Of a stretch of DNA of 21,117 nucleotides, positions 1 to 13,670 are shown piece by piece. The notes beneath the pieces were generated by a model that saw nothing but the letters and a program-made list of their open reading frames with translations, did not search any database and was not told the origin of the DNA. The stretch lies in the IMG/VR virus record IMGVR_UViG_3300005573_001064. The stretch is one strand, 5' to 3'. A program made the translations under genes and the position numbers. This DNA comes from an uncultured virus (IMG/VR IMGVR_UViG_3300005573_001064). Its lineage: Duplodnaviria > Heunggongvirae > Uroviricota > Caudoviricetes. The stretch's first letter is position 1, and each line of letters starts with the position of its first letter.

Positions 1-1
1 A

Positions 2-223
2 GGTCCACGTATCGTCGAATCCTTTTATCTGAGAGGCTGCACCTCTACCGTCGGGTTCCCTGAATATGATGTTGTATACCCTGTTACTATTAAATGGAGG
101 GTCCAAATATATCAGGTCCACGCTCTCATCCTTGATGTATCTCTCCCCGTTCAGGTCTCTGCCCCTCAGTATATCGAGGCAGTCTCCATAATACAGAACT
201 CCATCACGTGCATTTTCGGTCAT
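2..223 (-). CDS. N4/N6 DNA methyltransferase, N-terminal part (runs off the left edge of the window)
   Basis: Not in the ORF track. Manual translation gives MTENARDGVLYYGDCLDILRG...IKDESVDLIYLDPPFNSNRVYN...GFDDTWT, with the beta-class GDCLD and SVDLIYLDPPF (motif IV) signatures. A GGTGAT SD lies upstream of the ATG at 223. Confidence 0.9.
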   Translation of the reverse strand, partial: MTENARDGVLYYGDCLDILRGRDLNGERYIKDESVDLIYLDPPFNSNRVYNIIFREPDGRGAASQIKGFDDTWT

Positions 224-228
224 CTTAA

Positions 229-303
229 TCACCATCTTCTCTTTATGCTTACTGCCATCCCGACAGGTATCTCATCGACCATCTCAATCACCTTTTGGGC
301 CAA
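229..303 (-). CDS. possible 24-aa micro-ORF (MAQKVIEMVDEIPVGMAVSIKRRW)
   Basis: TTG start preceded by GGAGG. It fills the gap between two genes and its stop overlaps the SD of the methylase. Too short to verify. Confidence 0.25.
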   Translation of the reverse strand: MAQKVIEMVDEIPVGMAVSIKRRW

Positions 304-325
304 TGACAGCCCTCCGATTGAACCT

Positions 326-493
326 TTATCCTGTTTTCTCCTCTATTTTAATTACATTCTGTTTATTGATTTTTACTGTGCCATCCATTCTTTTTACGAT
401 AATCCAGAGGCCATTTTCTTCGACTAATCCTCTGATGGTTCTCACTCCTCCCCCTTCATTGTAAGTAACTGTAGACTCATTACTTCTTTCCAT
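326..493 (-). CDS. 55-aa small beta-rich protein, possibly Sm/LSm-like fold
   Basis: Not in the ORF track. Translates as MERSNESTVTYNEGGGVRTIRGLVEENGLWIIVKRMDGTVKINKQNVIKIEEKTG, starting just after the stop of 499..816 with a GGAG/GAGG-rich upstream sequence. The pattern resembles Sm1 (V...G..I.G.V) and Sm2 (V.I....V..IE). Confidence 0.6.
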   Translation of the reverse strand: MERSNESTVTYNEGGGVRTIRGLVEENGLWIIVKRMDGTVKINKQNVIKIEEKTG

Positions 494-498
494 CACCC

Positions 499-816
499 TC
501 ACTCCTTTTCCAAAAGTTTTTCGATTTTCTCCAGAGTAAGCCCTTTCTTTTTAACAAACCATTTCCAATGATTCTTTGGTTTTGTACTATATCCTGCATA
601 GGGTAGATGAGCGTCGGATGGTTTAGGGCAATGCACATAACCCCAATCCTCAAGATTTCTGAGTATTTTATTTATTCTTGCATCAATATCTGGTTTATTA
701 TATTTCCAAGCAACCCTCTCTTTTATCCTGTCGTCCGAAATTAATGCAATATATGACATAGGTCTTACAGATAATATCTTATATATATAAAGATATAGGG
801 CTGGCGGTAATATCAT
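499..816 (-). CDS. hypothetical protein, possible winged-helix DNA-binding protein
   Basis: GGGTGAT SD. RINKILRNLEDWGYV resembles a wHTH recognition helix plus wing. Confidence 0.6.
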   Translation of the reverse strand: MILPPALYLYIYKILSVRPMSYIALISDDRIKERVAWKYNKPDIDARINKILRNLEDWGYVHCPKPSDAHLPYAGYSTKPKNHWKWFVKKKGLTLEKIEKLLEKE

Positions 817-821
817 TTATA

Positions 822-1043
822 TCACCCCTTTTTGAAGTCTGCTCGTTTCACTAATTCATGCAAGGAATCAGACAACAGCGGTAAACTGCATTGCCCATAT
901 TTAATGGACCATAATCTGCATTCTTTTTCAACACATTGATAATTTATTATGGGACAAAACCAACCAGGTTTATTTTCCTTGATTATTTTCGTCTTTAAAG
1001 TCCCCCCATTATTTTCCATCTCTGAAGCCCCCCAATCATTCAT
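822..1043 (-). CDS. small Cys-rich (putative Zn-binding) viral protein
   Basis: CPIINYQCVEKECRLW...QC motif; start overlaps the end of the upstream methylase. Confidence 0.6.
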   Translation of the reverse strand: MNDWGASEMENNGGTLKTKIIKENKPGWFCPIINYQCVEKECRLWSIKYGQCSLPLLSDSLHELVKRADFKKG

Positions 1044-1971
1044 CCTTGAAGTATTTTAAGAACATCCTATATTCGATTTGGTCATCCAGTGCTTGCTCAT
1101 TCCAGCCTGTTTTTTTCATAATATCCTGAACAAATTCTCTACGATGGGATGTTGTATTATGATGCTCAATTAATTTCTTTTTACTTTCAAACTGTTTACC
1201 GCAAGTGCATTGGAACATATCTGTATCCTCATTCTTATAGTAATATCCTTTTTCGATACATATACAGTTTCTATGTAATTCCTTTGCGATTCTCATCGTC
1301 GTTGCCGTTCCAGCAAAAGGGTCTAGAACCCAATCCCCTTCATCAGATGACGCCAATAAACATCGTCTTACTTGTTCATAGTTTTTCTGTGTTGGGTGTT
1401 TCCCAACATTCATGCGGGTATCTACAGGAATAATCCAATAGTTGTGCATCTGTTTGCCTCTTGGAGAATCTGGAGGGCCATGATATTTTTTCATTCTGTG
1501 GTATGCAAAATAATATTTTTCATAAGGTCTTGCCCAAATCATTTCCTCTGTAGCAGCAGCAAATCGCACGCCTTTTAAATTTGGTACAGCATTCGGCTTT
1601 ATTATGACAATATTATTGATATGACTGTAGCCCAATTTCTCCATTGCCATTCTTATTGTCCATAGGTTGAAATTCCAGAAGCCACAAATCCAAATTGTTC
1701 CATCTTTAGCGATTAGTGGTTTCACCAGCTTAAGCCAACGATAATTGAAATCATAAACTTTCCGCCAATCTGCTTCATCATCCCAACTTCCTTTAAACAA
1801 TCTGATGCCTTTTCGCTTCATTAGACCTTCAGGTCTGGCGAGAATCCCTTTGCCACTGCTAACAAAATAAGGTGGGTCTGCAAATACAGTTCGAAATTTA
1901 TGTTTCCATTTTTCTTGTTTATCTTTCAGTATTTCAAAAGTATTCCCAAAATATATATGCAGTTTCAACAT
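1036..1971 (-). CDS. beta-class N6-adenine DNA methyltransferase (DpnA/M2.DpnII-like) with a C2H2 zinc-finger insertion
   Basis: Catalytic DPPY near the N-terminus, KPN.VPNL.G.RF...TE.MIWA, GKQM..W, HPTQK and the SAM-binding VLDPFAGTATT motif. GGAGG SD. Confidence 0.9.
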   Translation of the reverse strand: MLKLHIYFGNTFEILKDKQEKWKHKFRTVFADPPYFVSSGKGILARPEGLMKRKGIRLFKGSWDDEADWRKVYDFNYRWLKLVKPLIAKDGTIWICGFWNFNLWTIRMAMEKLGYSHINNIVIIKPNAVPNLKGVRFAAATEEMIWARPYEKYYFAYHRMKKYHGPPDSPRGKQMHNYWIIPVDTRMNVGKHPTQKNYEQVRRCLLASSDEGDWVLDPFAGTATTMRIAKELHRNCICIEKGYYYKNEDTDMFQCTCGKQFESKKKLIEHHNTTSHRREFVQDIMKKTGWNEQALDDQIEYRMFLKYFKDE

Positions 1972-1985
1972 TATTTCTGCCCTCC

Positions 1986-2201
1986 CTATTTCTTTTCTTC
2001 GGGCGGGATATACTCAATTCTTGCTGCTGCACATTTCGTGCATTCCTTTCTCCCTAGAGGTACTACTTCGCCACACTGTCTGCATTTGGGGAGGGTTAAG
2101 AACTTCTCCATTTGCTTCAGAATCTCTACATGGTTTATACAGAATTTTTCTCCTTCCATGGATATTCTGTCGCATCCTGGCCAATTGCATTTTTCAGTCA
2201 T
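1986..2201 (-). CDS. small double zinc-finger protein
   Basis: CNWPGC...FCINH and CRQC...CTKC motifs; packed in the operon. Confidence 0.7.
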   Translation of the reverse strand: MTEKCNWPGCDRISMEGEKFCINHVEILKQMEKFLTLPKCRQCGEVVPLGRKECTKCAAARIEYIPPEEKK

Positions 2202-2205
2202 CGTA

Positions 2206-2736
2206 TTACCCCTGTCGCATTATTGATTGTTCCAATGGGCATAACCCAAATGATTTGATGCAATTCTTACAGCTTCCATATCGTTTTTTCAATTCACAAT
2301 TCTTTCGTATCAGCCGATGCTCTTCTTTTATGATGTTTTTAGCATTGGGTTGTTGTTTGAGTGAAAGAGTTCCACCCAGCCTTCGTATCCGAAGTTTAAC
2401 TCCACGCTCAAGTTCGAATGGGCTGAGGCCCTTTTCAAGGCTTCTTCGGATATTCATTCTTGCTTTCTGACGGAATCTTCTTTCTTTCTCTTGTTGTGCG
2501 TGGAAATCTCGCCATTTAACTGCCTCATTTTCATAACCTTTACGATATCCAGTAGATTTTATTTTATCGAGGATTCTCTGTTCATATATGGGTTCCTCCC
2601 ATTCATTTTTGCATTCACTGTTTTCGCAAATGAAGACCACTAAATAGTATGGCACATCAGATTGTGGCTCTTCTTTTACATAGAATTTTGCCTTTGTCTG
2701 ACCACATTTTGGGCATACTCTGAAACAGTGTTCCAT
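2206..2736 (-). CDS. zinc-ribbon basic protein
   Basis: CPKC...CENSEC N-terminal ribbon, an Arg/Lys-rich helix and a C-terminal C..C....C cluster. GAGG SD. Confidence 0.7.
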   Translation of the reverse strand: MEHCFRVCPKCGQTKAKFYVKEEPQSDVPYYLVVFICENSECKNEWEEPIYEQRILDKIKSTGYRKGYENEAVKWRDFHAQQEKERRFRQKARMNIRRSLEKGLSPFELERGVKLRIRRLGGTLSLKQQPNAKNIIKEEHRLIRKNCELKKRYGSCKNCIKSFGLCPLEQSIMRQG

Positions 2737-2850
2737 GTTTATTCCTCACAGTCGTAGTACTCTACAGCTCAATATCATGGCGTTACACACAGGACAGCTC
2801 GGCCTACGAGCTCCTCGGTGAATAGCTGCCTTCGTCTCAATCAATAAATC

Positions 2851-3321
2851 TCAGAAGAATCCTTTGGCCTTGTGCTTCTTGGATTTCTCTGAATGTTTTA
2901 TCGTGCTGTCCGCCTTACTCTCTTTTGTGCCCTTCAGTTTTTTAGATGGATGCCTTATCTCAAATTCCATCTGAATTATTTTTGATTTCTTCTTTTTGGG
3001 TTTGGCATGGTGTATCTTCTTTATAGGCGGGACTCGCTCATCCATCCGCTCATCCTTTTCTGTTTGATGCTTGGATGAGTCAGTTGCTTTGGATGATGAG
3101 CCAGTTGGTTTCTCCTTCCGAGGAAAAGGAGATGTACAGCCCTTTTCTTTATCGAACATGCATCTGACGATACCCTTCTTGGGTATGAATTGAAAATGGT
3201 TCGTCTTTCTGCATCCAATGTTCGATTTTAGGCATCCGCTTGGTTTCAAGCTGTATTGCCTAAATTCGGCAAGTCGTTCCTCAGATATGCTCCTCTTACC
3301 CTTTGCCTTTTCCGTTTCCAT
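2851..3321 (-). CDS. Lys-rich hypothetical protein with a Cys/His cluster
   Basis: GGAGG SD, in the operon; CLKSNIGC..NH...C......GC followed by a low-complexity basic tail. Confidence 0.6.
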   Translation of the reverse strand: METEKAKGKRSISEERLAEFRQYSLKPSGCLKSNIGCRKTNHFQFIPKKGIVRCMFDKEKGCTSPFPRKEKPTGSSSKATDSSKHQTEKDERMDERVPPIKKIHHAKPKKKKSKIIQMEFEIRHPSKKLKGTKESKADSTIKHSEKSKKHKAKGFF

Positions 3322-3332
3322 GTTCAGACCTC

Positions 3333-4169
3333 CTAGTCGAGAAATCTCCTTCTATCAGACTTTTTCTTTTTTATTTCTGAAATTTTAGATTTGGGGGGAA
3401 ATCCGAGCCGTGCTTTTAACCATAAAACCTGAAATACTGATGCTCCTTTAGGAATATCTGTTCGCCCAAATAAAGGTCGTCCTCTCAATTTTACTGGAGT
3501 AAAGAAGAATTTGTTTCCTGTCCTTCCGAGGCATAGAACAACATCGAATCTGTATGCGTTATGTTTCTCCCCTTCGGGTTTTAGACCTACGCTAGAATAT
3601 AGATTTCTTAAGTCCTTATCCTTTTCAAATTCATATAGTTCGCCTGCAGATGATGTTGCTACTATGTTACAATTTATTCCTCTGGTAACTACATCCATGA
3701 AATCTGTATTATGTAGTTTTTTGATGATAGACCAGTCTTTCCATCCGTCTAATCGAGCCTGTTCGTCCTTTTTAGACTGAATCAGCCTTCGACGGAGTTC
3801 AATATAAAAATCGCCAGTGGCCTTCGTGAAAACTTGTTTGATATAATATGATTGAGCCATATCCCACAGTTGACCGAGATGTTCGAGTAGAAGAAAATCT
3901 TTACTTTTAATTCTTTTACGGATATGCCTGAAAATTTTCCGAACATCTTTCCAACTTCTGGCGAGGAAATAATGAGTCCTTTTTCTCACATCATCTGAAA
4001 ATTCTTGTATGACTCTTTTCATTCCAGCATCGGGGTCAATTACCCAAAGTTCAGATTCTGGATGGTCTCGCAAAAGTGCCAAGACATTCCAAGTTTTTCC
4101 CACACCAGGTTCTCCGTAGATGAGAACACGGTCACGAATACTGCTAAAGTCTACCTCTTCGACTACCAT
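3333..4169 (-). CDS. AAA_24/Sak4-like (RecA-fold) P-loop ATPase
   Basis: Walker A VLIYGEPGVGKT, VIDPDAG, a degenerate Walker B (LLLEH), W...KK.H and EGEKHNAYRFDVVL, as seen in viral Sak4/RadB-like ATPases. Confidence 0.8.
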   Translation of the reverse strand: MVVEEVDFSSIRDRVLIYGEPGVGKTWNVLALLRDHPESELWVIDPDAGMKRVIQEFSDDVRKRTHYFLARSWKDVRKIFRHIRKRIKSKDFLLLEHLGQLWDMAQSYYIKQVFTKATGDFYIELRRRLIQSKKDEQARLDGWKDWSIIKKLHNTDFMDVVTRGINCNIVATSSAGELYEFEKDKDLRNLYSSVGLKPEGEKHNAYRFDVVLCLGRTGNKFFFTPVKLRGRPLFGRTDIPKGASVFQVLWLKARLGFPPKSKISEIKKKKSDRRRFLD

Positions 4170-4215
4170 AATTTATCCGTCTCCTGTTTCCTTCTCCCAT
4201 GTTTATTGAAAAAAA

Positions 4216-5346
4216 TTATAGTGCAATGACTCTGTCGCCATTCACCTTAATCTTCTTTTCCTTTTCCCAAATTTCAAGACAGTTGCATATTTCATCTGGG
4301 GAAACTCCCTTCTTCTTTGCGAATCTTTTCAGAGATTTCTTTGTTGCTTTCCCATCTTTTATTAGTTTCAGGAGTTGCTTTTGTCCGGCCTTTGAAAGAG
4401 TTTTAGTGGTTTTCTTTTCAGATTCGTCTATTTCTTTTTCGATAGCGTCCATTTGGGCGTTAAATTCTTTATCTGCTTCGGCAAAGACTTTATCATAAGG
4501 AGTTATAAATCCATAATTTTCACCCACTGAAATGTAGGGATTGCGTAATTTCTTTTTATTTATTTCATTGGAGCCTAATCCGAATATAAGCAGCTTTAAA
4601 GAGCCGAGCCCCTCACGCAATTTCGTGAGCATTTTTTCTTGATCAGAAATTTTCTTGAAATGGTCTATAAATTTGATATATTTGACTCCATAAAGATCTG
4701 CTAAAATTTCAGGATTTCTTATAGTCATTGTAACCCTTGATTCTGGCCTATCTAAATCTGATATAATAAGACGAACATTACAAATTCTATTTCCTTCAGG
4801 GTCTTGGTCGAATAGGGGTTTGGGAGAAGACAGCTTGTTATCTCCTTCCCAGTCCACTGTTCGGACATTATTTACCTGACCTGCGATGCAATAAAAGCCT
4901 TTATCAGTAATGGCACTCGGAGGTTTTACGAAGTTGCGCAAGTCAAGAGATGTTAAAGTCCCCTCTTTATGGGTGATATATTCAAGAGTCTCAGATAAAT
5001 TGATAAGGTTTCTTATTCTGGTGGCCTTCATCTTTACAGGAGAAAATCTCTTTGGTTTTATCTGTAATGGCTTCTCGAAGAATATCCGCTTTACATCTGA
5101 TTCGGTTAGAATATAAGCCATATGATTGCCCCTTTTTGTGGTGATATAATCCAACCAGAATCCTTCAATCCATTCCGAACCAATTTTTTCCCTGGAGTGC
5201 ATCTGAATGATATGGTTCAATGCCTCTCGTGTGCTCAGACATTGGCCAGACTTCTTAAGTTTGGCCACTTCCTTGTCCACATCAGAAACCAATTCCTTTG
5301 CCCTATCATATAGTTCTGCTACATTTCTGGTGTCATCGTTTTCCAA
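4216..5346 (-). CDS. putative OB-fold ssDNA-binding (RPA-like) protein with a C-terminal winged helix
   Basis: TTG start with GGAGG SD. IAGQVNNVR...NVRLIISD...VTMTI is an OB-like strand pattern, and the C-terminal LLKLIK...VSPDEICNCLEIWEKEKKIKV is wHTH-like. It sits next to the Sak4-like ATPase, a common viral pairing. Confidence 0.55.
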   Translation of the reverse strand: MENDDTRNVAELYDRAKELVSDVDKEVAKLKKSGQCLSTREALNHIIQMHSREKIGSEWIEGFWLDYITTKRGNHMAYILTESDVKRIFFEKPLQIKPKRFSPVKMKATRIRNLINLSETLEYITHKEGTLTSLDLRNFVKPPSAITDKGFYCIAGQVNNVRTVDWEGDNKLSSPKPLFDQDPEGNRICNVRLIISDLDRPESRVTMTIRNPEILADLYGVKYIKFIDHFKKISDQEKMLTKLREGLGSLKLLIFGLGSNEINKKKLRNPYISVGENYGFITPYDKVFAEADKEFNAQMDAIEKEIDESEKKTTKTLSKAGQKQLLKLIKDGKATKKSLKRFAKKKGVSPDEICNCLEIWEKEKKIKVNGDRVIAL

Positions 5347-5392
5347 ACTTATCCCTCCATTTAGATATCTGTGATAATAAAAAGGTCTTAAT

Positions 5393-5560
5393 CTATTTGT
5401 TTAAAAGACGGCTGAGTTCTTCCTTGGCGATTAGCCACTGATTATTTGTGGATAATTTGACAGCTTTAAGTTTGCCTTTAGAAATCCATCTTCGGATAGT
5501 TCTTTCTGAAAATCCAGTGGCCTTCGCTAATTCGGAAACTTTGATAAAATCCGTGGTCAT
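5393..5560 (-). CDS. Xis/MerR-like (HTH_17) DNA-binding protein
   Basis: MTTDFIKVSELAKATGFSERTIRRWISKGKLKAVKL...WLI is the excisionase-family pattern. The start is moved to ATG 5560 because the longer 5629 frame overlaps the promoter. Confidence 0.85.
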   Translation of the reverse strand: MTTDFIKVSELAKATGFSERTIRRWISKGKLKAVKLSTNNQWLIAKEELSRLLNK

Positions 5561-5597
5561 GAAAAATCCGCCGATAATGGCTAATGCACCTATGCCA

Positions 5598-5605
5598 TAT
5601 ATAAA
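5598..5605 (-). promoter_or_regulatory. archaeal TATA box for the leftward early operon
   Basis: TTTATATA on the minus strand ~38 nt upstream of ATG 5560. A short inverted repeat CTCCT-N7-AGGAG lies at 5610-5626. Confidence 0.55.
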
Positions 5606-5687
5606 TATTCTCCTCAAAATTAGGAGCATAGACAGAATAAGTCGGATTTACAAATTATGAATTTTTTAACACATTCTGGTATCCATA

Positions 5688-5743
5688 GGACACCTCGGAC
5701 ACTATGTGCCACCTTGTGCCACCTTGTGCCACCTGGGACACTC
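5688..5743. repeat. phased ~10-bp direct repeat array (operator or iteron-like)
   Basis: TGTGCCACCT occurs exactly three times (5705-5734), flanked by degenerate GGACACCT, GGACACTA and GGACACTC units. Confidence 0.85.
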
Positions 5744-5854
5744 TTTTCTGAAGGTGTAACAATATACTATATATAGGGCATGTTTGTATATATATGATGG
5801 ATTAAGAGAAGGATTGCCGGAAAGCATTATGGCAATCCTCCAAAGGTGATTCCC

Positions 5855-6316
5855 ATGAAGTTTATCATAAATGGAACTGATATGAAGAAGAAGAAAGTTG
5901 GAGGGAACAAGTATGGTTATCTGTATCTTCCTAAAGAGTGGATAGGAAGTATGGTAACTGTAATCAAACATGAAACCAATGAGGTTTCCAATCCTCAGAA
6001 ATCAAAAAAATTTCAAAAAATGAAGCTGTTTGCTATCAAAAAATTGGAGCGGGAGGGATATGAAATTTCTGATACATCTATAAATATCGAAGGCAGAATT
6101 AAACATCCTCTTCTGATAGGCACCAAAGGAAGTCGTATGGTCGTTGTTTCTGCATCTCCTAATAAAATAATTAAATCAGGGGAGATAGATAAGGATTTGT
6201 CCTCTGCAGCAAACGTCGTTTATATGGTAATAAATGACGATGCTAGATTTTCAGATAAGGCTATGTCAAAGATTAAAAAACTTGCGAATGTTAAGGTCTG
6301 GAGGTGCCCTCGATGA
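5855..6316 (+). CDS. AbrB-like (DUF2080-type) DNA-binding domain fused to a PD-(D/E)xK-like domain
   Basis: GGTGAT SD before ATG 5855. N-terminal KKKVGGNKYGYLYLPKEWIGSMVTVI; C-terminal FAIKKLEREGYEI...HPLLIGTKGSRMVVVSA. Confidence 0.65.
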   Translation: MKFIINGTDMKKKKVGGNKYGYLYLPKEWIGSMVTVIKHETNEVSNPQKSKKFQKMKLFAIKKLEREGYEISDTSINIEGRIKHPLLIGTKGSRMVVVSASPNKIIKSGEIDKDLSSAANVVYMVINDDARFSDKAMSKIKKLANVKVWRCPR

Positions 6317-6720
6317 ACTGGATTAAGCAGATGAAAGCTGAGAATCGTGAACTTAAAAGGCAACTCAGAGAGTTAAAGAAGGAACAGCTCTCGGTTAAGG
6401 AATCGAAGGAATACACAGAACTTCATCATAAATATAAAAATTTGCTGAAGGCAAATAAGGAATATGAAGGGATAATTGAACGCTTTTCTGAAGAGAATAA
6501 TATGCTTCGTGAGGAGTCATTATACGCTCAAAGAACTCTGGGGGACGCCATTGAGAAAGAGAAAAAGAAAATCAGAAGGATGCTTAAAATTATTAAAATA
6601 CTGAATAAATGGTTGGGCGAGATGCCTAATGCTGTATTGGAGAAGTTTAAAGATTCTGACGACTACCCAGTGTTTATTGAATTTTATGAACGTCATGTTC
6701 TGAAGAAGGAGGAGGTTTGA
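6313..6720 (+). CDS. coiled-coil hypothetical protein
   Basis: GGAGGTG SD, ATGA overlap with the previous stop, heptad-rich Glu/Lys sequence. Confidence 0.75.
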   Translation: MNWIKQMKAENRELKRQLRELKKEQLSVKESKEYTELHHKYKNLLKANKEYEGIIERFSEENNMLREESLYAQRTLGDAIEKEKKKIRRMLKIIKILNKWLGEMPNAVLEKFKDSDDYPVFIEFYERHVLKKEEV

Positions 6721-8288
6721 AGATGAAGAAGGAAGAAGAGATGGGATTACCTGAAGACCCTGAGTATCAAGAACCATCTGAAGAAAGTGGGCTTTATGGT
6801 AAACTACAATCTGAAGAAAAGAAAGCGACCAAAAAGTATAAGCACATTTCCAGGAAAGAACTCAGGAATATTGTCTATGGGTATTTTAATGAAGGATATC
6901 TGAAGAAGCCCCGCCATATTTGGAAAAAGCTGAAGGGCAAATATAAGGTTGATGGAGAAAAAATAGAACTGGGTGATATTTTGGCCCTTAAGAAGACATA
7001 CCAGGATGAAGAACCAGAGGTGTTTGAAAAAGAGGAGACCGTTCCAGCCTATACAACGCCAACCGATAAGGAAAAGGAGATGCTTTGGCAGCTGTATGAT
7101 GATGCTAAAAAGAAGGGCGATGAAAAACTTATGCAAAGGATTCAGGATAGAATCCTTGGCAGAGAACCGAAAGAAAAGACATGGGAAGAGAGACTTTTAG
7201 AAACTGCATTGAGAAATTTGGAAGGTGGGGGTAGGAATAGCCTAGACGAGTTTCAAATGAAGATGCAGCAATCTATGCTGAATTTCATGGATTTCCAGAA
7301 TAAAGCCATGGAACAAATCGCTAAATCAAGAGGTAGTGGGCTATCTGGAGACCCGAATGTTGCCTTGGCACAGGTTGTTACCCCAACTCTTGAAAAGGGG
7401 TTTGAAGAAATTAATCAAACAGTGCGAGAAGTCGGTGGGCTTAAGCCGAAAAAGAAATTGACCCCAGAGGATGAACAAAAAGTCCAAGCTGCACAGAAGG
7501 TGCTTGAGCAATTCGATAAAATAAATAAACAATTTATTAGATGCAGTGAATGTGGTTATGTAATTCCGAGGATTGCTGCCCAATGCCCACGCTGCGGTTC
7601 TATTTTCGAGCCATCAGATGAGGAGCGTGCATTAGCAGAAGCAGAACAGAAAAAAAAGGGGAAACCGTCCGTTGAACCCTTAACACCTGTAGAATTGGAA
7701 AAAATCGCTAGAGGGGAGCAAGTTAGAAAAAATGCTCAGAAGGTGGAAATTGATATGTCCAAACCTAAAAGTAAATTCCCAGAAGGGATGGAATGGCTGG
7801 AAGGATATTTCAATCCTGAAGATGGGACACTGTATCGGCTAAAATATAAGATTGAATGCGGTCATGATGCCAAGATGTCAATATCAGGTGTATGGTCATG
7901 GCTTGACCCTGCGAAGGACGAACCAAAGAAACTCCTGTTTGCAGCTACAAAGGGGATAGATTATCTTCTTGAGGCTGCCAAGCCATATATTGACCAATTT
8001 GAACAGAAGGAACTTTATGAATTTTTCAACACACCTGAGGCCAAGGCTTGGATGATTACTGCATTTAACCAAGTAAAGGAATTGGCCAAGGCCGATAATA
8101 TTGTCTTGACAGAGGATGATATAAAGAAGTTCGAGGATAAAATTAAGCCTTATTTGAAAAATATGGGACTGTGTGGTTTATGCGGGGCTTCCCTTCCATT
8201 TTCTGAGTTGGATGCCCATTTCAAAGAATGCCAGAAAGAACAGCTGAGAAAAATCGAGAATGAAGTTAAAAAGGCCAGTAAAGGATAG
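6717..8288 (+). CDS. large helical protein with a central zinc ribbon and a C-terminal C2HC zinc finger
   Basis: 523-aa ORF with GGAGG SD (the start may be ATG 6723). Contains CSECG...CPRCG and CGLC-x11-H-x3-C. Confidence 0.85.
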   Translation: MKMKKEEEMGLPEDPEYQEPSEESGLYGKLQSEEKKATKKYKHISRKELRNIVYGYFNEGYLKKPRHIWKKLKGKYKVDGEKIELGDILALKKTYQDEEPEVFEKEETVPAYTTPTDKEKEMLWQLYDDAKKKGDEKLMQRIQDRILGREPKEKTWEERLLETALRNLEGGGRNSLDEFQMKMQQSMLNFMDFQNKAMEQIAKSRGSGLSGDPNVALAQVVTPTLEKGFEEINQTVREVGGLKPKKKLTPEDEQKVQAAQKVLEQFDKINKQFIRCSECGYVIPRIAAQCPRCGSIFEPSDEERALAEAEQKKKGKPSVEPLTPVELEKIARGEQVRKNAQKVEIDMSKPKSKFPEGMEWLEGYFNPEDGTLYRLKYKIECGHDAKMSISGVWSWLDPAKDEPKKLLFAATKGIDYLLEAAKPYIDQFEQKELYEFFNTPEAKAWMITAFNQVKELAKADNIVLTEDDIKKFEDKIKPYLKNMGLCGLCGASLPFSELDAHFKECQKEQLRKIENEVKKASKG

Positions 8289-8318
8289 TGAAGGAATTTC
8301 AGTAGATAGGTGATTTCT

Positions 8319-8531
8319 GTGCCGAGAAAGAACAAATTCAAGACAGTCTCTGACGAAACCTGGAAAGTGTCCGAGGAAGAAAGCAGACGGGCCTTCAAGG
8401 GAAAACCACCGAAGGTGGACTACTGGATAACCTTTAGGATGCCCTGGATGACAAAGGAAGGCTGGGAGAACTATATAAGGCGTCTGAACAAGGTCGAGTA
8501 CAGGGACGGTCGTATAAAAAGACAAAGGTGA
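8319..8531 (+). CDS. small basic hypothetical protein
   Basis: GGTGAT SD before GTG 8319; stop overlaps the next start. Confidence 0.6.
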   Translation: MPRKNKFKTVSDETWKVSEEESRRAFKGKPPKVDYWITFRMPWMTKEGWENYIRRLNKVEYRDGRIKRQR

Positions 8532-8959
8532 TGCAGATGGAAATGTTTGAAATCAAACAAAGAGCACCTGTAGATAGAAAAGCGTTTTCAACAGTGACCT
8601 TGATAAAGATGGCAGTAGGATTTATTATCTTTTGGCAATGCCTGATGATGATATTGTGGGTTTCATTTCCATCTTTAGACTGGGTTTTATTGCGTTTTTC
8701 TTTGTCGAATGCTGATGCGATAACAATTTTTGCTTTAATATTATCCTTTTATGGTTACTGGAGATTCGAGAAATCCTCAGAGAGCGAAGATATGATTTTC
8801 CTACAACAATTTGTATTAACCTTGAAGGAGGCAGGATTGACTCCACAGATGATTAAAATAATAGTGAAGGGCATGTATGGTAAGAGGATTGAACGAATCA
8901 AGGAACGGCTTGAAAGCGGGAAATGTACTGAGGAAGAAATAATGGAGGCACTGAAATGA
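8531..8959 (+). CDS. membrane protein with two transmembrane helices
   Basis: Hydrophobic segments MAVGFIIFWQCLMMILWVSF and AITIFALILSFYGYW, followed by a charged tail. Confidence 0.75.
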   Translation: MQMEMFEIKQRAPVDRKAFSTVTLIKMAVGFIIFWQCLMMILWVSFPSLDWVLLRFSLSNADAITIFALILSFYGYWRFEKSSESEDMIFLQQFVLTLKEAGLTPQMIKIIVKGMYGKRIERIKERLESGKCTEEEIMEALK

Positions 8960-9342
8960 ATGATGCAGGGTTTGGCGGGAAAGGTGTGAATAAAATAATA
9001 CTGATAGAATGTTCATGTGGCACTCTAAATACTGATGATCATTTTACCTGCATTAAATGCGGAAACCAGATGGATAAATGTGAAAGGACAACATGGATTA
9101 AGGTTCCAGATGAGGTTTCACCACAAGATAAGAAAGAACTGTTGATATTTCTTCATAAAAAATTATTGTCGTGCAATAAAGTTGCAAGAGCAATATACAG
9201 AAAGGTTCTTACGGAAAGCATAGATTTTCTTGACGAATTGCCAGAAGAGGCTAAAAAGTATTCGGTTCAAGCGTATGTAGATTTCCTGAGAGAAGCGAAA
9301 AAGAAGAGACAAATAGAACGACTGGGGGTTGAACAAGAATGA
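8956..9342 (+). CDS. zinc-ribbon protein
   Basis: CSCG...CIKCG motif; ATGA overlaps at both ends. Confidence 0.7.
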   Translation: MNDAGFGGKGVNKIILIECSCGTLNTDDHFTCIKCGNQMDKCERTTWIKVPDEVSPQDKKELLIFLHKKLLSCNKVARAIYRKVLTESIDFLDELPEEAKKYSVQAYVDFLREAKKKRQIERLGVEQE

Positions 9343-9755
9343 AGGTCTGTAAGAGATGTGGGAAGCCATTGAATCAATGCTTTTGTTATACTGATGTTGG
9401 TTTGGATGCGATTTTAGAGCAGTGGAAGAAAGAAAAAGCCAAAGGGAATGTTGGGGAAAGGGTTACAGAAGAGGATATAAGGGAACAATTAAAACAAAAA
9501 CCACCCAGGACAAAGAGTGACCTTGAACATTTGCTTGATTTTATGGGCCTTGATGAGAATGCTCGAAGGCAAATAGTGGCAAAGGCCAAAAAGTCTTTGC
9601 TGAAGTCGGCTAAAAGAACTGCACATGACCTGATAGATGAACTAATACCTAATGCAGAAGATTTGGTTATTGAAGCCGATTACGAAGTAGAATGTCCAGT
9701 ATGTGGTAAAATGGTTAAAGATTTGGAAAACCACGAGTGCCGTCCAAAGTCGTGA
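9339..9755 (+). CDS. protein with N- and C-terminal zinc-binding motifs
   Basis: CKRCG...CFC and CPVCG...HEC; last gene before a T/A-rich convergent gap. Confidence 0.7.
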   Translation: MKVCKRCGKPLNQCFCYTDVGLDAILEQWKKEKAKGNVGERVTEEDIREQLKQKPPRTKSDLEHLLDFMGLDENARRQIVAKAKKSLLKSAKRTAHDLIDELIPNAEDLVIEADYEVECPVCGKMVKDLENHECRPKS

Positions 9756-9874
9756 TGTTGTACATCACTCATACCATTTTAGGGGAACGGTTTAGTGTAT
9801 TGCTGTGTAGTCATTTTTGAGGATATTTTTAAAAAATAAATTTCAGTGATGTGAGAGGTTTTTAAAAATTCTAT

Positions 9875-10177
9875 TCACGCCTGTTTATGTGTTCTCCTTC
9901 TGTTGATTCGTTTTGTAATTGCTTTAACTCTATCAAAATCTTTCTTTGCTTGAATTAATTTCTTTTTCAGTTCTAGTCTTACCATTGATTCGAGATAATC
10001 ATCTGGTAAATTTTCAATCAGATTGGAAAGTAGTTGGGCGATAGGGATGCCCAGTTCTATCCGTGCTTTGGCGAGAATATCATATGCCTTGGGACTAATT
10101 CCCACAGCCATGTAAGTCTTCTCTCTACCCTTCTTGTTTTTCTCCGCATTCTTTTTGTTTTCCTGGTAATTTTTCAT
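9875..10177 (-). CDS. ribbon-helix-helix (CopG-like) transcription regulator
   Basis: GGAGG SD before ATG 10177. TYMAVGISPKAYDILAKARIELGIPIAQLLSNLIE fits the RHH strand-helix-G-helix pattern. Confidence 0.7.
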   Translation of the reverse strand: MKNYQENKKNAEKNKKGREKTYMAVGISPKAYDILAKARIELGIPIAQLLSNLIENLPDDYLESMVRLELKKKLIQAKKDFDRVKAITKRINRRRTHKQA

Positions 10178-10248
10178 GTCTTGACCTCCTATTTTCACCG
10201 ATTTTCCAAATCGGTTTTTAACTCATTTTAACCTATTAAATTGGGTTC

Positions 10249-10256
10249 TATATAAA
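10249..10256 (-). promoter_or_regulatory. TATA box for the RHH gene
   Basis: TTTATATA on the minus strand upstream of the RHH start. Confidence 0.45.
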
Positions 10257-10342
10257 TCTTTCTCTAGGGGTATCAGCGAAATCCCTATATAACTCATATG
10301 AATTCTACAGGAAATTTCTTCGCTTAAAATGGGTTTAATAGC

Positions 10343-10362
10343 AGAAAAGAAAGGTTTAAATA
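10343..10362 (+). promoter_or_regulatory. BRE-TATA promoter for the structured leader and virion operon
   Basis: Purine-rich GAAAAGAAAGG followed by TTTAAATA (10355-10362), predicting a start near 10385-10390. Confidence 0.55.
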
Positions 10363-10392
10363 GTAGTGGCGGGATATATATATGAGAGGATG

Positions 10393-10677
10393 TACCGTAA
10401 CATGAAAAATAGTTAGTATAGTGCTAGTATAGTTAGTATAGTATATGTAAGCAATCCTGTAACTAACGGAGACCACATCGGTAGATGCTGATTGTGGTCA
10501 AGGGCGGGATTGTGAAAAGCTGAAAAGTTGAAAAGTATTCCCCAAGGCTTTCGCCAAGGGGATAGAGGGGCTGGGGGTGGCCCCATGGAGGTTAAGCATA
10601 TGAAACCTTCAGAATTCCTTCGGGAAACATCCTGCGGTGGGTAGTTCATATAGACAGATAAGACACCTGCTACGGTA
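10393..10677 (+). ncRNA. structured non-coding RNA or long 5' leader of unknown family
   Basis: At least seven helices found by eye, many with G-U pairs that work only on the + strand. Includes a cUUCGg loop (10615-10626) and complementary ends TACCGTA/TACGGTA. Confidence 0.65.
10414..10442. repeat. TAGTATAGT x3 direct repeat
   Basis: Exact copies start at 10414, 10425 and 10434. Confidence 0.8.
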
Positions 10678-10704
10678 ACTTAAAAACCAGGAGGGAGATA
10701 CAAG

Positions 10705-11898
10705 GTGAGGGTACACATAATTAACCCCTCAGGCGAACCGGAGTCAGAGTCTTCCCTCAGCAATCCCGAAAATATACGGAGGGCCTCTCTTCTGAAGTGG
10801 GCCAAGCGTCAAGGGCTCAATTCTCAACAGGCCGAGGATTTTGTGGACTATTATGAAAATCCGAGGGGATGGTTTGGGGAACCAGAAAGAGCCAGAACAA
10901 GCCATCTAATGGAGTGGGCCAGACGCAAGAATTTGGAGGTTGATGAGAAGGAACTGACGATGGCTATCGAAAACGCCTGGTTTGGTGAATCAGGAGGTCG
11001 TAGAATGGGTGCTCTGAAGAAATGGGCAAAGCGACATGGATTGAGTGATGCAGATGCGGAAGAATTTGCAGAGTATGTTGAGAATGCCTGGTACGGTGAC
11101 CCTGAGAGCCACCGCAAGGCAGCCATAAAAGGCTGGAGATTGAGGCGGACAGAGGAAAACCCAATATTCCCCATTCTGCCGAAACTCGGTGTCCCAGCGG
11201 AGTACCAGGAAGCCCTAGGCATATCTGAGGTTAGGAAAGATTGGCCTCACGCTGGTGGAATATTGCTGGGATTGGCGGACACATCATTCTACAGTGGCAT
11301 TTCCGAGATGGCCACGGGAAACGAATGGTGGGGGACCGTAATCGGTGCAGGATTGGGCCTAGGCACTTCAGAGGTTATCCGAAGGTGGTATCCTGCTGAA
11401 GATTGGAGGGATGGTCTGGCGAGGGGCCAGAGGATAGGCACTCTGGGTATTACTCTTTTCCGTATTGTGGCAGGCGGAATCAGGGCGATGACCAAGCCTG
11501 CGGAGGCCACGGCATCAGGGCCTATGGGAAGCGGACTTGACGATGTAATTGAAAAGATAAAGCAGGGTAAGATTATAGAAGCCGTCAAGATACCCATGAT
11601 GACAGGTCTCCGTTATGATGACATCGGCTCGATGGGTAAGTTCCTTAACCTGTCGTGGGATGCGCCTCATATGCCTCGGTTGATGTTCTGGAGGAGGAAA
11701 GAAGCCACCCCAACCCCAACTGGACAGGAGTATCACCCGTCGCAGATGGGCCAAGAGGAGTATCCTGCAATAACCCAGCAGGATGTAGCCAAACAGACAA
11801 GGCAGGTGGCAATCAGCGCCCAAGACACATACAAGGGCAAGCCCTATGAGACTAGGGACTTTGCAATCAGTGCCGGCGAAGGGCTAGGTGTATCATAG
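10705..11898 (+). CDS. putative virion core/membrane protein with N-terminal ~37-aa basic repeats and a Gly-rich hydrophobic region
   Basis: GGAGG SD. Repeated EN[PA]..W[FY]G[ED]...W[AR].R units, then GTVIGAGLGLG and IGTLGITLFRIVAGG segments. First gene of the structural block. Confidence 0.65.
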   Translation: MRVHIINPSGEPESESSLSNPENIRRASLLKWAKRQGLNSQQAEDFVDYYENPRGWFGEPERARTSHLMEWARRKNLEVDEKELTMAIENAWFGESGGRRMGALKKWAKRHGLSDADAEEFAEYVENAWYGDPESHRKAAIKGWRLRRTEENPIFPILPKLGVPAEYQEALGISEVRKDWPHAGGILLGLADTSFYSGISEMATGNEWWGTVIGAGLGLGTSEVIRRWYPAEDWRDGLARGQRIGTLGITLFRIVAGGIRAMTKPAEATASGPMGSGLDDVIEKIKQGKIIEAVKIPMMTGLRYDDIGSMGKFLNLSWDAPHMPRLMFWRRKEATPTPTGQEYHPSQMGQEEYPAITQQDVAKQTRQVAISAQDTYKGKPYETRDFAISAGEGLGVS

Positions 11899-11983
11899 AA
11901 TTCATTTTCCGCTAGTATATAGTGAAGAGTGGTGATTTTTAGTGTATTTCAGTAACAAAGTGAGAAGGTAAGGTGAAAAAAAC

Positions 11984-12724
11984 ATGGCAGGAGATACACA
12001 GGCTTTGCAGGTTGCCCCTGGGGTTGAAATCGAGTTGGTGAACTTCACCCCTGAGGAGAACAAGAGGTTCGACCTCGACTACCCCAAGGTAACCGCAGTA
12101 TATGACCAGAACAGTGTGAGAGCAGACCAGAAGCACATAATTGCTGACTGGTTTGATGAGACCATAGAGACCTATCGTCTGCTGGCACAGGCGTGCAAGC
12201 ACGACATTCAGCCATCGGCTGGAATGTTCCAAGGCCAGAGGGCAACAACGGGCTTTGGCTTCAGGATGATTAGGCCTGATGACATTGTGCCGACGGCACA
12301 GGGCAGGACCTTCGATGCTACTGTCGCAGGTCTTACGGCCAACAGCTGGTACGGCCTATACCACAACGGTGCAATCGGCGCTGCATACAACGCCACGGCG
12401 CTGTACCTCCGAAAGGAACTAGGTATCGGCATGGTTGGAACGCAGGAGATGGGGGCCGACTCCATCATAGAGGAAACCCAGTTTGAAATCAATGGGAAGC
12501 CCTTGCCTGTGTTCAACTGTGAGAGGCAGTTTGTTGGTTCTGGGTGGAGGGTGTTCAGGTTCCCACAGGTTGAATACTTCAAGCCCGCCATCCAATACAG
12601 GTCTCAGGCGAAGTTCGCAGCGGCGGACGGTGCTACGAAGCATGTCCCTGTTGGACTTACCTTTGTGACCTCGGACTACGACAGGAACACAACGCCGACG
12701 CAGCCAAGCACGACGGCCCCGTAG
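11984..12724 (+). CDS. putative major capsid protein (probably single jelly-roll)
   Basis: AGGTGA SD and C/G-ending codons suggesting high expression. An N-terminal helical part, an FQG...GFGFRMIRP motif, then alternating beta strands. Located at the head of the structural block. The fold is inferred, not computed. Confidence 0.55.
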   Translation: MAGDTQALQVAPGVEIELVNFTPEENKRFDLDYPKVTAVYDQNSVRADQKHIIADWFDETIETYRLLAQACKHDIQPSAGMFQGQRATTGFGFRMIRPDDIVPTAQGRTFDATVAGLTANSWYGLYHNGAIGAAYNATALYLRKELGIGMVGTQEMGADSIIEETQFEINGKPLPVFNCERQFVGSGWRVFRFPQVEYFKPAIQYRSQAKFAAADGATKHVPVGLTFVTSDYDRNTTPTQPSTTAP

Positions 12725-12752
12725 GATAGCTGATGGAATAGGGGGATAAAAA

Positions 12753-13268
12753 ATGGCATCTAATGTGCATGTTAAAGATGTGCCACGACTGGTTCAAAGA
12801 ACCTTGCCTGATGCTGCCCCTTTCAACAGCTATCCCGTCATACTCGCAATAACGGACGGGGTGTTGACTGCTGGGTCCACTACAATGACAACTGCTGGTG
12901 GTGGTATAGCAGCAAATCATGCTGGAAGCCGACTCATCATATCAACTGGGCCAAACCGAGGTGTCTATACTATCTCTTCTGTGACCGATGGGAATACCAT
13001 GGACCTGAATGCGGCTGCTAGAGTTTCCCAGACTGGCGTAGTGTGTGTCTGCGGAGGCATCTATCATACAGCAGGAGGGTTCAAGATTCGCAGTTTTCTA
13101 GCAGATATAGGTACAAAGTTTCATGTGTATATGGTGGCTCAGTTCAGGGGGACGGCAATTCTACAGGTCCTAGATGAATCAACAAATGCTGAAGCAGCTA
13201 CAACCACCAACCTCAAGACGAAAGTGATGGCTGGAACAGCAGTAGTGTCCCAACCATGGGGTAAGTAG
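12753..13268 (+). CDS. putative minor virion protein (Gly/Ala/Thr-rich beta protein)
   Basis: LIISTGPNRGVYTISSVTDGNTMDL is a beta pattern typical of virion proteins; follows the MCP candidate before a terminator. Confidence 0.65.
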   Translation: MASNVHVKDVPRLVQRTLPDAAPFNSYPVILAITDGVLTAGSTTMTTAGGGIAANHAGSRLIISTGPNRGVYTISSVTDGNTMDLNAAARVSQTGVVCVCGGIYHTAGGFKIRSFLADIGTKFHVYMVAQFRGTAILQVLDESTNAEAATTTNLKTKVMAGTAVVSQPWGK

Positions 13269-13284
13269 GCAAGTCTTGAACTTC

Positions 13285-13320
13285 TGTCTTTTTTTCTTTT
13301 TTATTTTTTAGTTTATTTTA
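13285..13320 (+). terminator. archaeal oligo-T terminator
   Basis: Several T4-T8 runs directly after the stop at 13268. Confidence 0.65.
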
Positions 13321-13342
13321 TATATTTCAGGAGGTTAATCAC

Positions 13343-13537: not shown

Positions 13538-13670
13538 GAGTATCAAATTTCAATAGGTCAAATCTGTAGTATTAAGGTGTATAAAAAGTGTTAGAGTATA
13601 CAGAAATATTATAATTCTAATCATGGCATGGGCTTCGGCCCTCCAGGATAGACAGATAGGAGGTCTGTAA

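Follow-up and report, generated by a model that had tools for sequence, protein, structure and literature searches.

In archaea, IS1341-type tnpB genes have sense-overlapping transcripts (sotRNAs) at their 3' end, and such non-coding RNAs from a tnpB 3' end are one likeness for the locus described here. Another is the guide RNA of TnpB itself. In the account of Karvelis et al. (2021, PMC8612924), the RNA bound by TnpB, the reRNA, is about 150 nt long and matches the 3' end of tnpB together with the right end of the transposon; its final ~16 nt derive from the flank and work as the guide. Meers et al. (PMC10055086) describe protein-less elements, the PATEs, which often encode omega-RNAs needing the TnpBs of other elements in trans. 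A further system is presented in PMC10705468: TldR proteins are domesticated TnpBs with guide RNAs, and they act as transcription factors.

The DNA analysed here, hereafter the window, is a stretch of 21,117 nucleotides from an uncultured virus of the Caudoviricetes (IMG/VR record IMGVR_UViG_3300005573_001064). An initial annotation had described positions 10393-10677 as an undescribed viral non-coding RNA or a regulatory leader. Our analysis indicates, with good confidence, that 10446-10633 is an internally deleted IS200/IS605-type tnpB pseudogene which has kept its omega-RNA (reRNA) scaffold. What appeared to be a new viral RNA class is a known kind of RNA: a TnpB guide-RNA scaffold left by gene decay.

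The resemblance to the RNA described by Karvelis et al. (PMC8612924) has three parts: the scaffold comes from the tnpB 3' end and the right end, on the tnpB strand; its conserved stems overlap the last codons of the gene; and the sequence past the putative right-end boundary varies by copy. Unlike in that system, the tnpB ORF is here destroyed, neither a left end nor a TAM was found in the window, binding, processing and guide use are putative for this scaffold, and its type is absent from Rfam 15. The locus is like those of TldR, as PMC10705468 presents them, in that a TnpB-type scaffold adjoins a promoter, putative in our case, and a host-type gene; unlike them, it has no nuclease-dead protein gene of the kind retained there, and gave no target match within the window.

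Genomic setting

The element sits between divergent genes, in the longest stretch of the window that carries no gene (10199-10704). On one side is a minus-strand ORF of 107 aa (9875-10198), ribbon-helix-helix-like by eye, for which a Pfam search gave no match. On the other is a plus-strand ORF of 397 aa starting with GTG at 10705 and preceded by a Shine-Dalgarno-like GGAGG at 10690-10694 (10690-11898 with this site).

The genes downstream had been taken for a virion operon, a label that the searches did not support: Pfam, PHROGs, NCBIfam and the PDB gave no virion identity, and the operon proved unannotatable. Family names could be attached to only four of the 33 ORFs in the window (a DNA methylase, a Sak4-like ATPase, an HTH_17 protein and weak zinc ribbons). 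Sixteen ORFs downstream of 10705 returned no Pfam match, the 15 scanned against NCBIfam returned none either, and PHROGs gave just two weak matches for the downstream ORFs, both for the 397-aa protein. PDB sequence searches with the family profile of the 397-aa protein (A1) and with a 530-aa protein were empty. For the 397-aa and 246-aa proteins, AlphaFold gave models with pLDDT of 42 and 31, too poor for a structure search, and in the ESM Atlas the 397-aa protein scored 0.78 at best, which was of no help.

Only three homologues of this protein were found in a set of 5.8 billion, with identities of 99, 44 and 42%. The N-terminal half of the protein is made of four W-A-[KR]-R-x-G-L ... E-N-x-W-[FY]-G-[DE]-P-E repeats, weakly similar to the GWFGDPEGH repeats of unrelated bacterial genes (L002-L004), and its C-terminal half is hydrophobic and glycine-rich. 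No relatives of the gene were found in searches of viral and genome contigs; a search of metagenome contigs produced one true locus, L001, and three unrelated genes with GWFGDPE repeats. The 530-aa protein had no match in viral contigs, and phages gave no match either to the 530-aa and 376-aa proteins by tblastn or to positions 10350-10720 by blastn.

Two DNA runs labelled hot springs metagenome (X1 and X2) contain the window sequence; among the runs listed for it, none was of RNA. The presence of TATA-like boxes, together with a hairpin-less T-rich stretch after 13268, is a hint of a possible archaeal host. In that stretch (13269-13342), the stop codon of the ORF at 12753-13268 is followed by T runs without a G+C-rich hairpin, and these by a TTTTATATA box, with the next start codon 20 nt downstream of it; judged by its letters, the arrangement looks more like archaeal-style than bacterial termination and initiation.

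Predicted fold of the element

Every helix listed in the initial annotation has the right coordinates and letters, and together they give a structure of 56 pairs, nine of them G-U, with two inner pairs set one base off. The plus strand of 10393-10677 folds with a minimum free energy of -95.2 kcal/mol, compared with -74.2 +/- 4.7 for shuffled sequences (z -4.47), and none of 200 shuffles was as good; the minus strand reaches -72.4 (z -2.95). Folding beyond shuffled controls is thus confirmed, and so is the RNA-type structure of the plus strand, the only strand matched by the covariance model described below.

In a plus-strand scan of 84 out of 146 windows of 285 nt (positions 1-12250), the candidate came first with z -4.65, its frame having been chosen to suit the closing helix and the other frames being arbitrary. 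The runner-up was a coding window (z -4.11), over a background with a mean of -0.46 and a standard deviation of 1.34. A scan of 202 windows of 150 nt gave only -2.55 and -1.29 for those in the element, and values down to -4.68 for coding windows elsewhere. Predicted folds at temperatures up to 80 C retain the closing helix, the GCAATCCTGT/GCGGGATTGT helix with its inner hairpin, and the hairpins at 10536-10564 and 10567-10584.

The element was said not to match tRNA, SRP, RNase P, C/D box or known ribozyme cores, and an Rfam search at gathering scores returned nothing, the best E-value in 10150-10800 being 0.64; ARAGORN found no tRNA. Phi29-type pRNA, retrons, IS110 bridge RNA, IscB omega-RNA, H/ACA and C/D RNAs and a lambda-type late leader were dropped as candidates on one of three grounds: a partner gene absent according to Pfam, no Rfam match, or no terminator.

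Two pieces of a tnpB gene

The relationship to tnpB is seen in an IMG/VR contig, L143, whose 459-aa ORF (725-2104) is a TnpB according to Pfam (OrfB_IS605, 2.3e-23; Cas12f1-like_TNB, 5.5e-10). The contig was found with the H1 hairpin pattern, composed of the letters on which the window and the second copy described below agree; one of its four matches in viral contigs was real. Other DNA patterns were uninformative: GAAAAG x3 had 100 matches, all chance stretches; H3 had 24, which were terminator-like hairpins; H4 had one viral and 12 high-GC bacterial matches, attributable to chance; and the 5' motif had none.

Two pieces of the window correspond to this gene. Fragment 1 (10446-10522, plus strand), recognised by blastn, tblastn and alignment A4, lies after the LDLGV motif: 10446-10517 aligns with L143 1471-1543, just past the motif, with 81% identity over 75 nt, and tblastn pairs IVVKGGIVKS with IVVNGGVVKS. 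Its frame is broken by the loss of 1 nt in a hairpin loop, and it contains two of the structures first noticed in the element, the helix 10451-10460/10504-10513 and the hairpin 10471-10499. The second piece (10530-10633, plus strand) is the tnpB 3' end with the right end and forms the scaffold; it comprises the last 23 codons, with the stop at 10601-10603. Positions 10532-10600 align with the last 23 codons of the L143 gene (2030-2098) at 77% by blastn, and tblastn pairs KVFPKAFAKGIEGLGVAPWRLSI with KAFPNAFTDGIEGIGVCPRRLSVA, each followed by the stop, at the TnpB C-terminus (65% identity, E 3.5e-5), this being the only homologous piece with a strong protein-level E-value and just 23 aa long. 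The C-terminal motif, of the type GIEGxGVxPxRLS, is also present in the TnpBs of an Altiarchaeum virus, Bacillus phage G, Helicobacter phages and a crAss-like phage; in one comparison it was common to the TnpBs of three other viruses.

Between the two pieces, the GAAAAG x3 stretch (10513-10536, plus strand, period 8) had been interpreted as a linker. It is actually the scar of an internal tnpB deletion of ~480 nt, as the spacing of the homologous pieces demonstrates: 487 nt in L143 and 479 nt in the second copy (run X1). No intact tnpB is thus present in cis: two fragments remain, with a 1-nt frameshift, ~480 nt deleted and the N-terminal two thirds gone. Positions 10150-10450 have no similarity to tnpB loci, a weak test for a left end as the left ends of this clade are undefined, and the Y1 transposase (TnpA) is absent among the 33 window ORFs according to Pfam and PHROGs. 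In L143, a 102-aa ORF (2077-2385) begins within the last tnpB codons and spans the presumed omega-RNA region.

Sequence comparison also places the helix of fragment 1 (10451-10513, plus strand) in L143 (1477-1540) and in the loci L147, L148 and L149. It is a 10-bp helix in which the codons of G-x-N-N-L-V-T pair with those of G-G-V-V-K and enclose a variable hairpin. Five of six tnpB sequences keep it, intact ORFs included, and 86.7% of its cells are paired, compared with 79.0% in shuffles (1 of 500 reaches the observed value) and 32-57% when partners are slid. It could be a conserved RNA or single-stranded DNA structure, or a codon-composition effect; a second conserved helix inside the tnpB ORFs of this clade may merit a proper survey.

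The scaffold and its covariation

The second piece carries four plus-strand hairpins: H3 (10536-10564) and H4 (10567-10584), both covarying, followed by H5 (10586-10611) and H6 (10615-10626). A covariance model built from the 3' ends of L143, L147 and L148 alone, with the window excluded, has one significant match in the window, at 10531-10612 on the plus strand (69.6 bits, E 6.3e-15), where all 15 pairs are standard; the next-best match has an E-value of 1.4. Across six TnpB 3' ends, RNAalifold detects compensatory changes in 10 of the 15 pairs of H3 and H4, G-U pairs included. In these two hairpins 86.7% of cells are paired; shuffles give 68.5%, none of 500 attaining the observed value, and sliding the partners gives 39-57%. 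Codon or composition effects could contribute to this signal, the covarying region being also coding in intact genes. The core hairpins of the element are real conserved helices. For the other two the comparison was made by eye: L143 keeps the 5' arm of H5, with the 3' arm beyond an inserted hairpin, and has GUUC-UGAA-GAAC as the counterpart of H6.

No Rfam 15 family was found for the 3' ends of five intact tnpB loci, so the blank result for the window is explained by a scaffold clade that has no family there. For the same reason, the RNA-level assignment draws on our own alignments of three to six sequences. Homology and the covariance model agree that the core of the supposed undescribed RNA is a guide-RNA scaffold overlapping the 3' end of tnpB.

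At position 10577, run X2 has A in place of G in the GGGG loop of H4; the change is helix-neutral and, in the tnpB frame, turns GGG into GAG (Gly to Glu).

A second copy and a mosaic variant

In run X1, positions 10530-10633 form a separate unitig of 104 nt, with a depth of 24.4x compared with 11.2x and 12.3x for the flanks. The same unitig is also joined to other flanks, which reveals a second copy in another context in the same two metagenomes. The two copies are at a depth ratio of about 1:1 (11.2/12.3 versus 12.3/12.2 in X1, 7.73 versus 7.6 in X2). By hand reading, the second copy has DLNAAYNIIRKVFPKAF in the tnpB frame and, 479 nt upstream, TVGTNIGKKPIVV in the same frame, and its three visible flanking pieces are all in frame. 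The upstream part is a diverged version of 10460-10522, at that greater distance. The scaffold is identical in the two copies at 104 of 104 positions and fragment 1 has ~10 differences in ~64 columns (hand count), a contrast which makes uniform decay unlikely and fits selection or recent gene conversion.

Window and second copy are identical through 10633 and diverge from 10634, and similarity to L143 also stops near 10633; we therefore infer the right-end boundary at 10633/10634. The flank past this boundary, in the putative guide position (10634-10665, plus strand), is part of a cassette, 10615-10665, that is replaced in L001. With up to three mismatches allowed, the first 16-mer of the flank (10634-10649) matches nowhere else in the window.

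The metagenome contig L001 corresponds to positions 8246-12903 of the window. It matches the element through 10614, has another cassette in place of 10615-10665 and small changes at 10678-10681, and differs elsewhere by 10 clustered substitutions (9359-9548) and four scattered ones. Its cassette keeps the closing helix and extends it by G-C pairs, has an enlarged TTCC/GGAA hairpin, and contains an additional copy of the 28-nt motif beginning at 10381. The clustered substitutions occupy 190 nt of the ORF at 9339-9755 in genomes otherwise ~99.9% identical; to judge from the two sequences, this cluster and the cassette look like patchwise recombination between co-existing variants. A joint of 10408 to 10682 in run X2 is the L001-type variant and does not prove an empty site.

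Promoter-like box, repeats and loops

A TATA-like box had been noted upstream of the 5' end, and TTTAAATA is present at 10356-10363 (plus strand), after a purine-rich run; five of the 25 TTWWATA heptamers of the window fall in 10234-10362. The box is a possible promoter, with a predicted start at ~10385-10390 and transcription that would read through the whole element. No run of at least five T lies between the element and the 397-aa gene, so a transcript from this box would run into that gene.

The direct repeat TACNGTAAC flanks the element on the plus strand: the first 7 nt of the left copy (10393-10401) pair with 10671-10677, and the right copy (10671-10679) provides the 3' arm of this closing helix. 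The pattern has two occurrences in the window, compared with 0.18 expected, and one of 100 shuffles gave at least two. Tandem Repeats Finder reports an A+T-rich tandem repeat of ATAGT and ATAGTTAGT units at 10409-10445 (plus strand), with little predicted structure and no detectable homology to tnpB loci. Neither the closing helix with its TACNGTAAC repeat, nor the A+T-rich repeat, nor the 3' cassette is accounted for by derivation from tnpB.

A kissing loop had also been proposed. Its letters, ATATGA and TCATAT, are present; the pairing itself is at chance level, as the duplex of the loop with the 3' segment (-4.8 kcal/mol) is equalled by 877 of 2000 shuffles of the segment. In L001, the best partner of the loop is a different site, equalled by 259 of 2000 shuffles.

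The sequence ATAGACAGATA occurs twice, at 10650-10660 and 13648-13658, and in both places it precedes a Shine-Dalgarno site and follows, at a distance of ~20 nt, a C-UUCG-G hairpin (10615-10626 and 13631-13642). Two or more matches were obtained in 8 of 100 shuffles. Sequence and hairpin may be a shared leader module.

A probable decayed gene with a surviving scaffold

In intact elements of this type, the tnpB 3' end and the right end are transcribed as an omega-RNA scaffold bound by TnpB, and ~16 nt of flanking DNA after the scaffold serve as the guide. The window retains two survivors of such an element: a frameshifted piece of ~75 nt, which directly followed the first RuvC motif, and the last 23 codons with the transposon right end. 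The ~480 nt between them and the whole 5' two thirds of the gene have been lost. H3-H6 represent the scaffold, and resemble a designed RNA because of that origin. Read from the 10356 box into the 397-aa gene, the element would find itself in the leader of that gene. Outside the scaffold, the supposed RNA consists of another fragment of the gene, the scar of the deletion, the A+T-rich repeat and a 3' cassette that is mosaic.

As to present function, we lean towards a decaying relic and not a regulator of the downstream genes, a preference held with limited confidence. That the scaffold might still be usable in trans by a TnpB seems to us rather unlikely. The hot-spring virus population has a broken copy and an in-frame second copy with identical scaffolds, and offers a natural test case for the use of orphan omega-RNAs in trans.

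A functional version of this idea is that the element is a working, protein-less, PATE-like omega-RNA gene, whose scaffold would be loaded in trans by the TnpB of the second copy with a guide starting at 10634. We regard it as a minority possibility. The scaffold is identical to that of the second copy while the adjoining coding fragment has diverged and become frameshifted; such identity is also explicable by recent recombination, the locus being mosaic. The near 1:1 depth of both copies in two runs, the TATA-like box upstream and the fact that the surviving pieces are exactly the two with conserved helices speak for a maintained gene, and the locus resembles the PATEs of Meers et al. (PMC10055086) as a short protein-less element with a scaffold and a tnpB gene elsewhere. 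PATEs, as that paper presents them, stay mobile with both ends, unlike this locus with no recognisable left end, and the frameshifted ORF piece looks like deletion decay, not a streamlined mobile element. Moreover, the scaffold of L001 is altered from 10615, within H6, the scaffold of this clade may have its 5' limit in the deleted part, and neither a TAM nor a further target of the guide-position 16-mer was found in the window.

A bolder possibility, which we consider improbable, is a promoter-driven guide-RNA gene assembled from the two structured tnpB pieces, the hairpin domain within the ORF and the 3' scaffold; the virus's own TnpB would load its RNA in trans and so gain a second guide. 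If this were true, the second guide could drive homing against variants of the locus or act on the adjacent operon, and the conserved hairpin within the tnpB ORF would belong to the working RNA, a role that had gone unnoticed.

The original proposal, an undescribed non-coding RNA or regulatory leader with the 10393/10677 helix as its closure and a loop-loop contact for tuning, now appears very improbable. The z of -4.5 for the whole element, first of 84 windows, is in its favour, but the best helices derive from tnpB. L001 retains the closing helix, lengthened by G-C pairs; against this, the 3' third is freely swapped between near-identical genomes and the kissing loop is at chance level. With no T-run before the 397-aa gene the element would be part of its mRNA, but the upstream region could be compared in one relative of that gene, L001.

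A site that works as DNA (a replication origin, a packaging signal or an operator cluster, for instance), with only incidental hairpins, has still less to recommend it. The A+T-rich tandem repeat, the flanking TACNGTAAC repeats and the position between divergent genes would suit such a site, but the fold is strand-asymmetric, the covariation includes G-U pairs with a model matching the plus strand only, and the cumulative GC skew turns near 5400-5700, away from the element. Least credible is a small protein gene, on the minus strand (78-aa ORF, 10413-10649) or the plus strand (42 codons, 10516-10641): both frames are open, the former also in L001 (74 aa), but neither has a Pfam match, the 78-aa ORF has no homologue among proteins of 42-137 aa, L001 form included, the 42-aa frame has no longer relative and, in 1.84 billion representatives, only chance matches, which fall in a repetitive SIPDGFRQGTEP protein family, and by hand reading the second copy has stop codons in the minus-strand frame at both edges of the core.

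Another feature of the window

A perfect tandem repeat of three 10-nt units, TGTGCCACCT, occupies 5705-5734, in the gap between divergent minus- and plus-strand gene blocks. It adjoins TATA-like runs and a GGATTGCC/GGCAATCC hairpin, and the cumulative GC skew has its minimum there. From its sequence, the repeat is likely an operator or iteron site.
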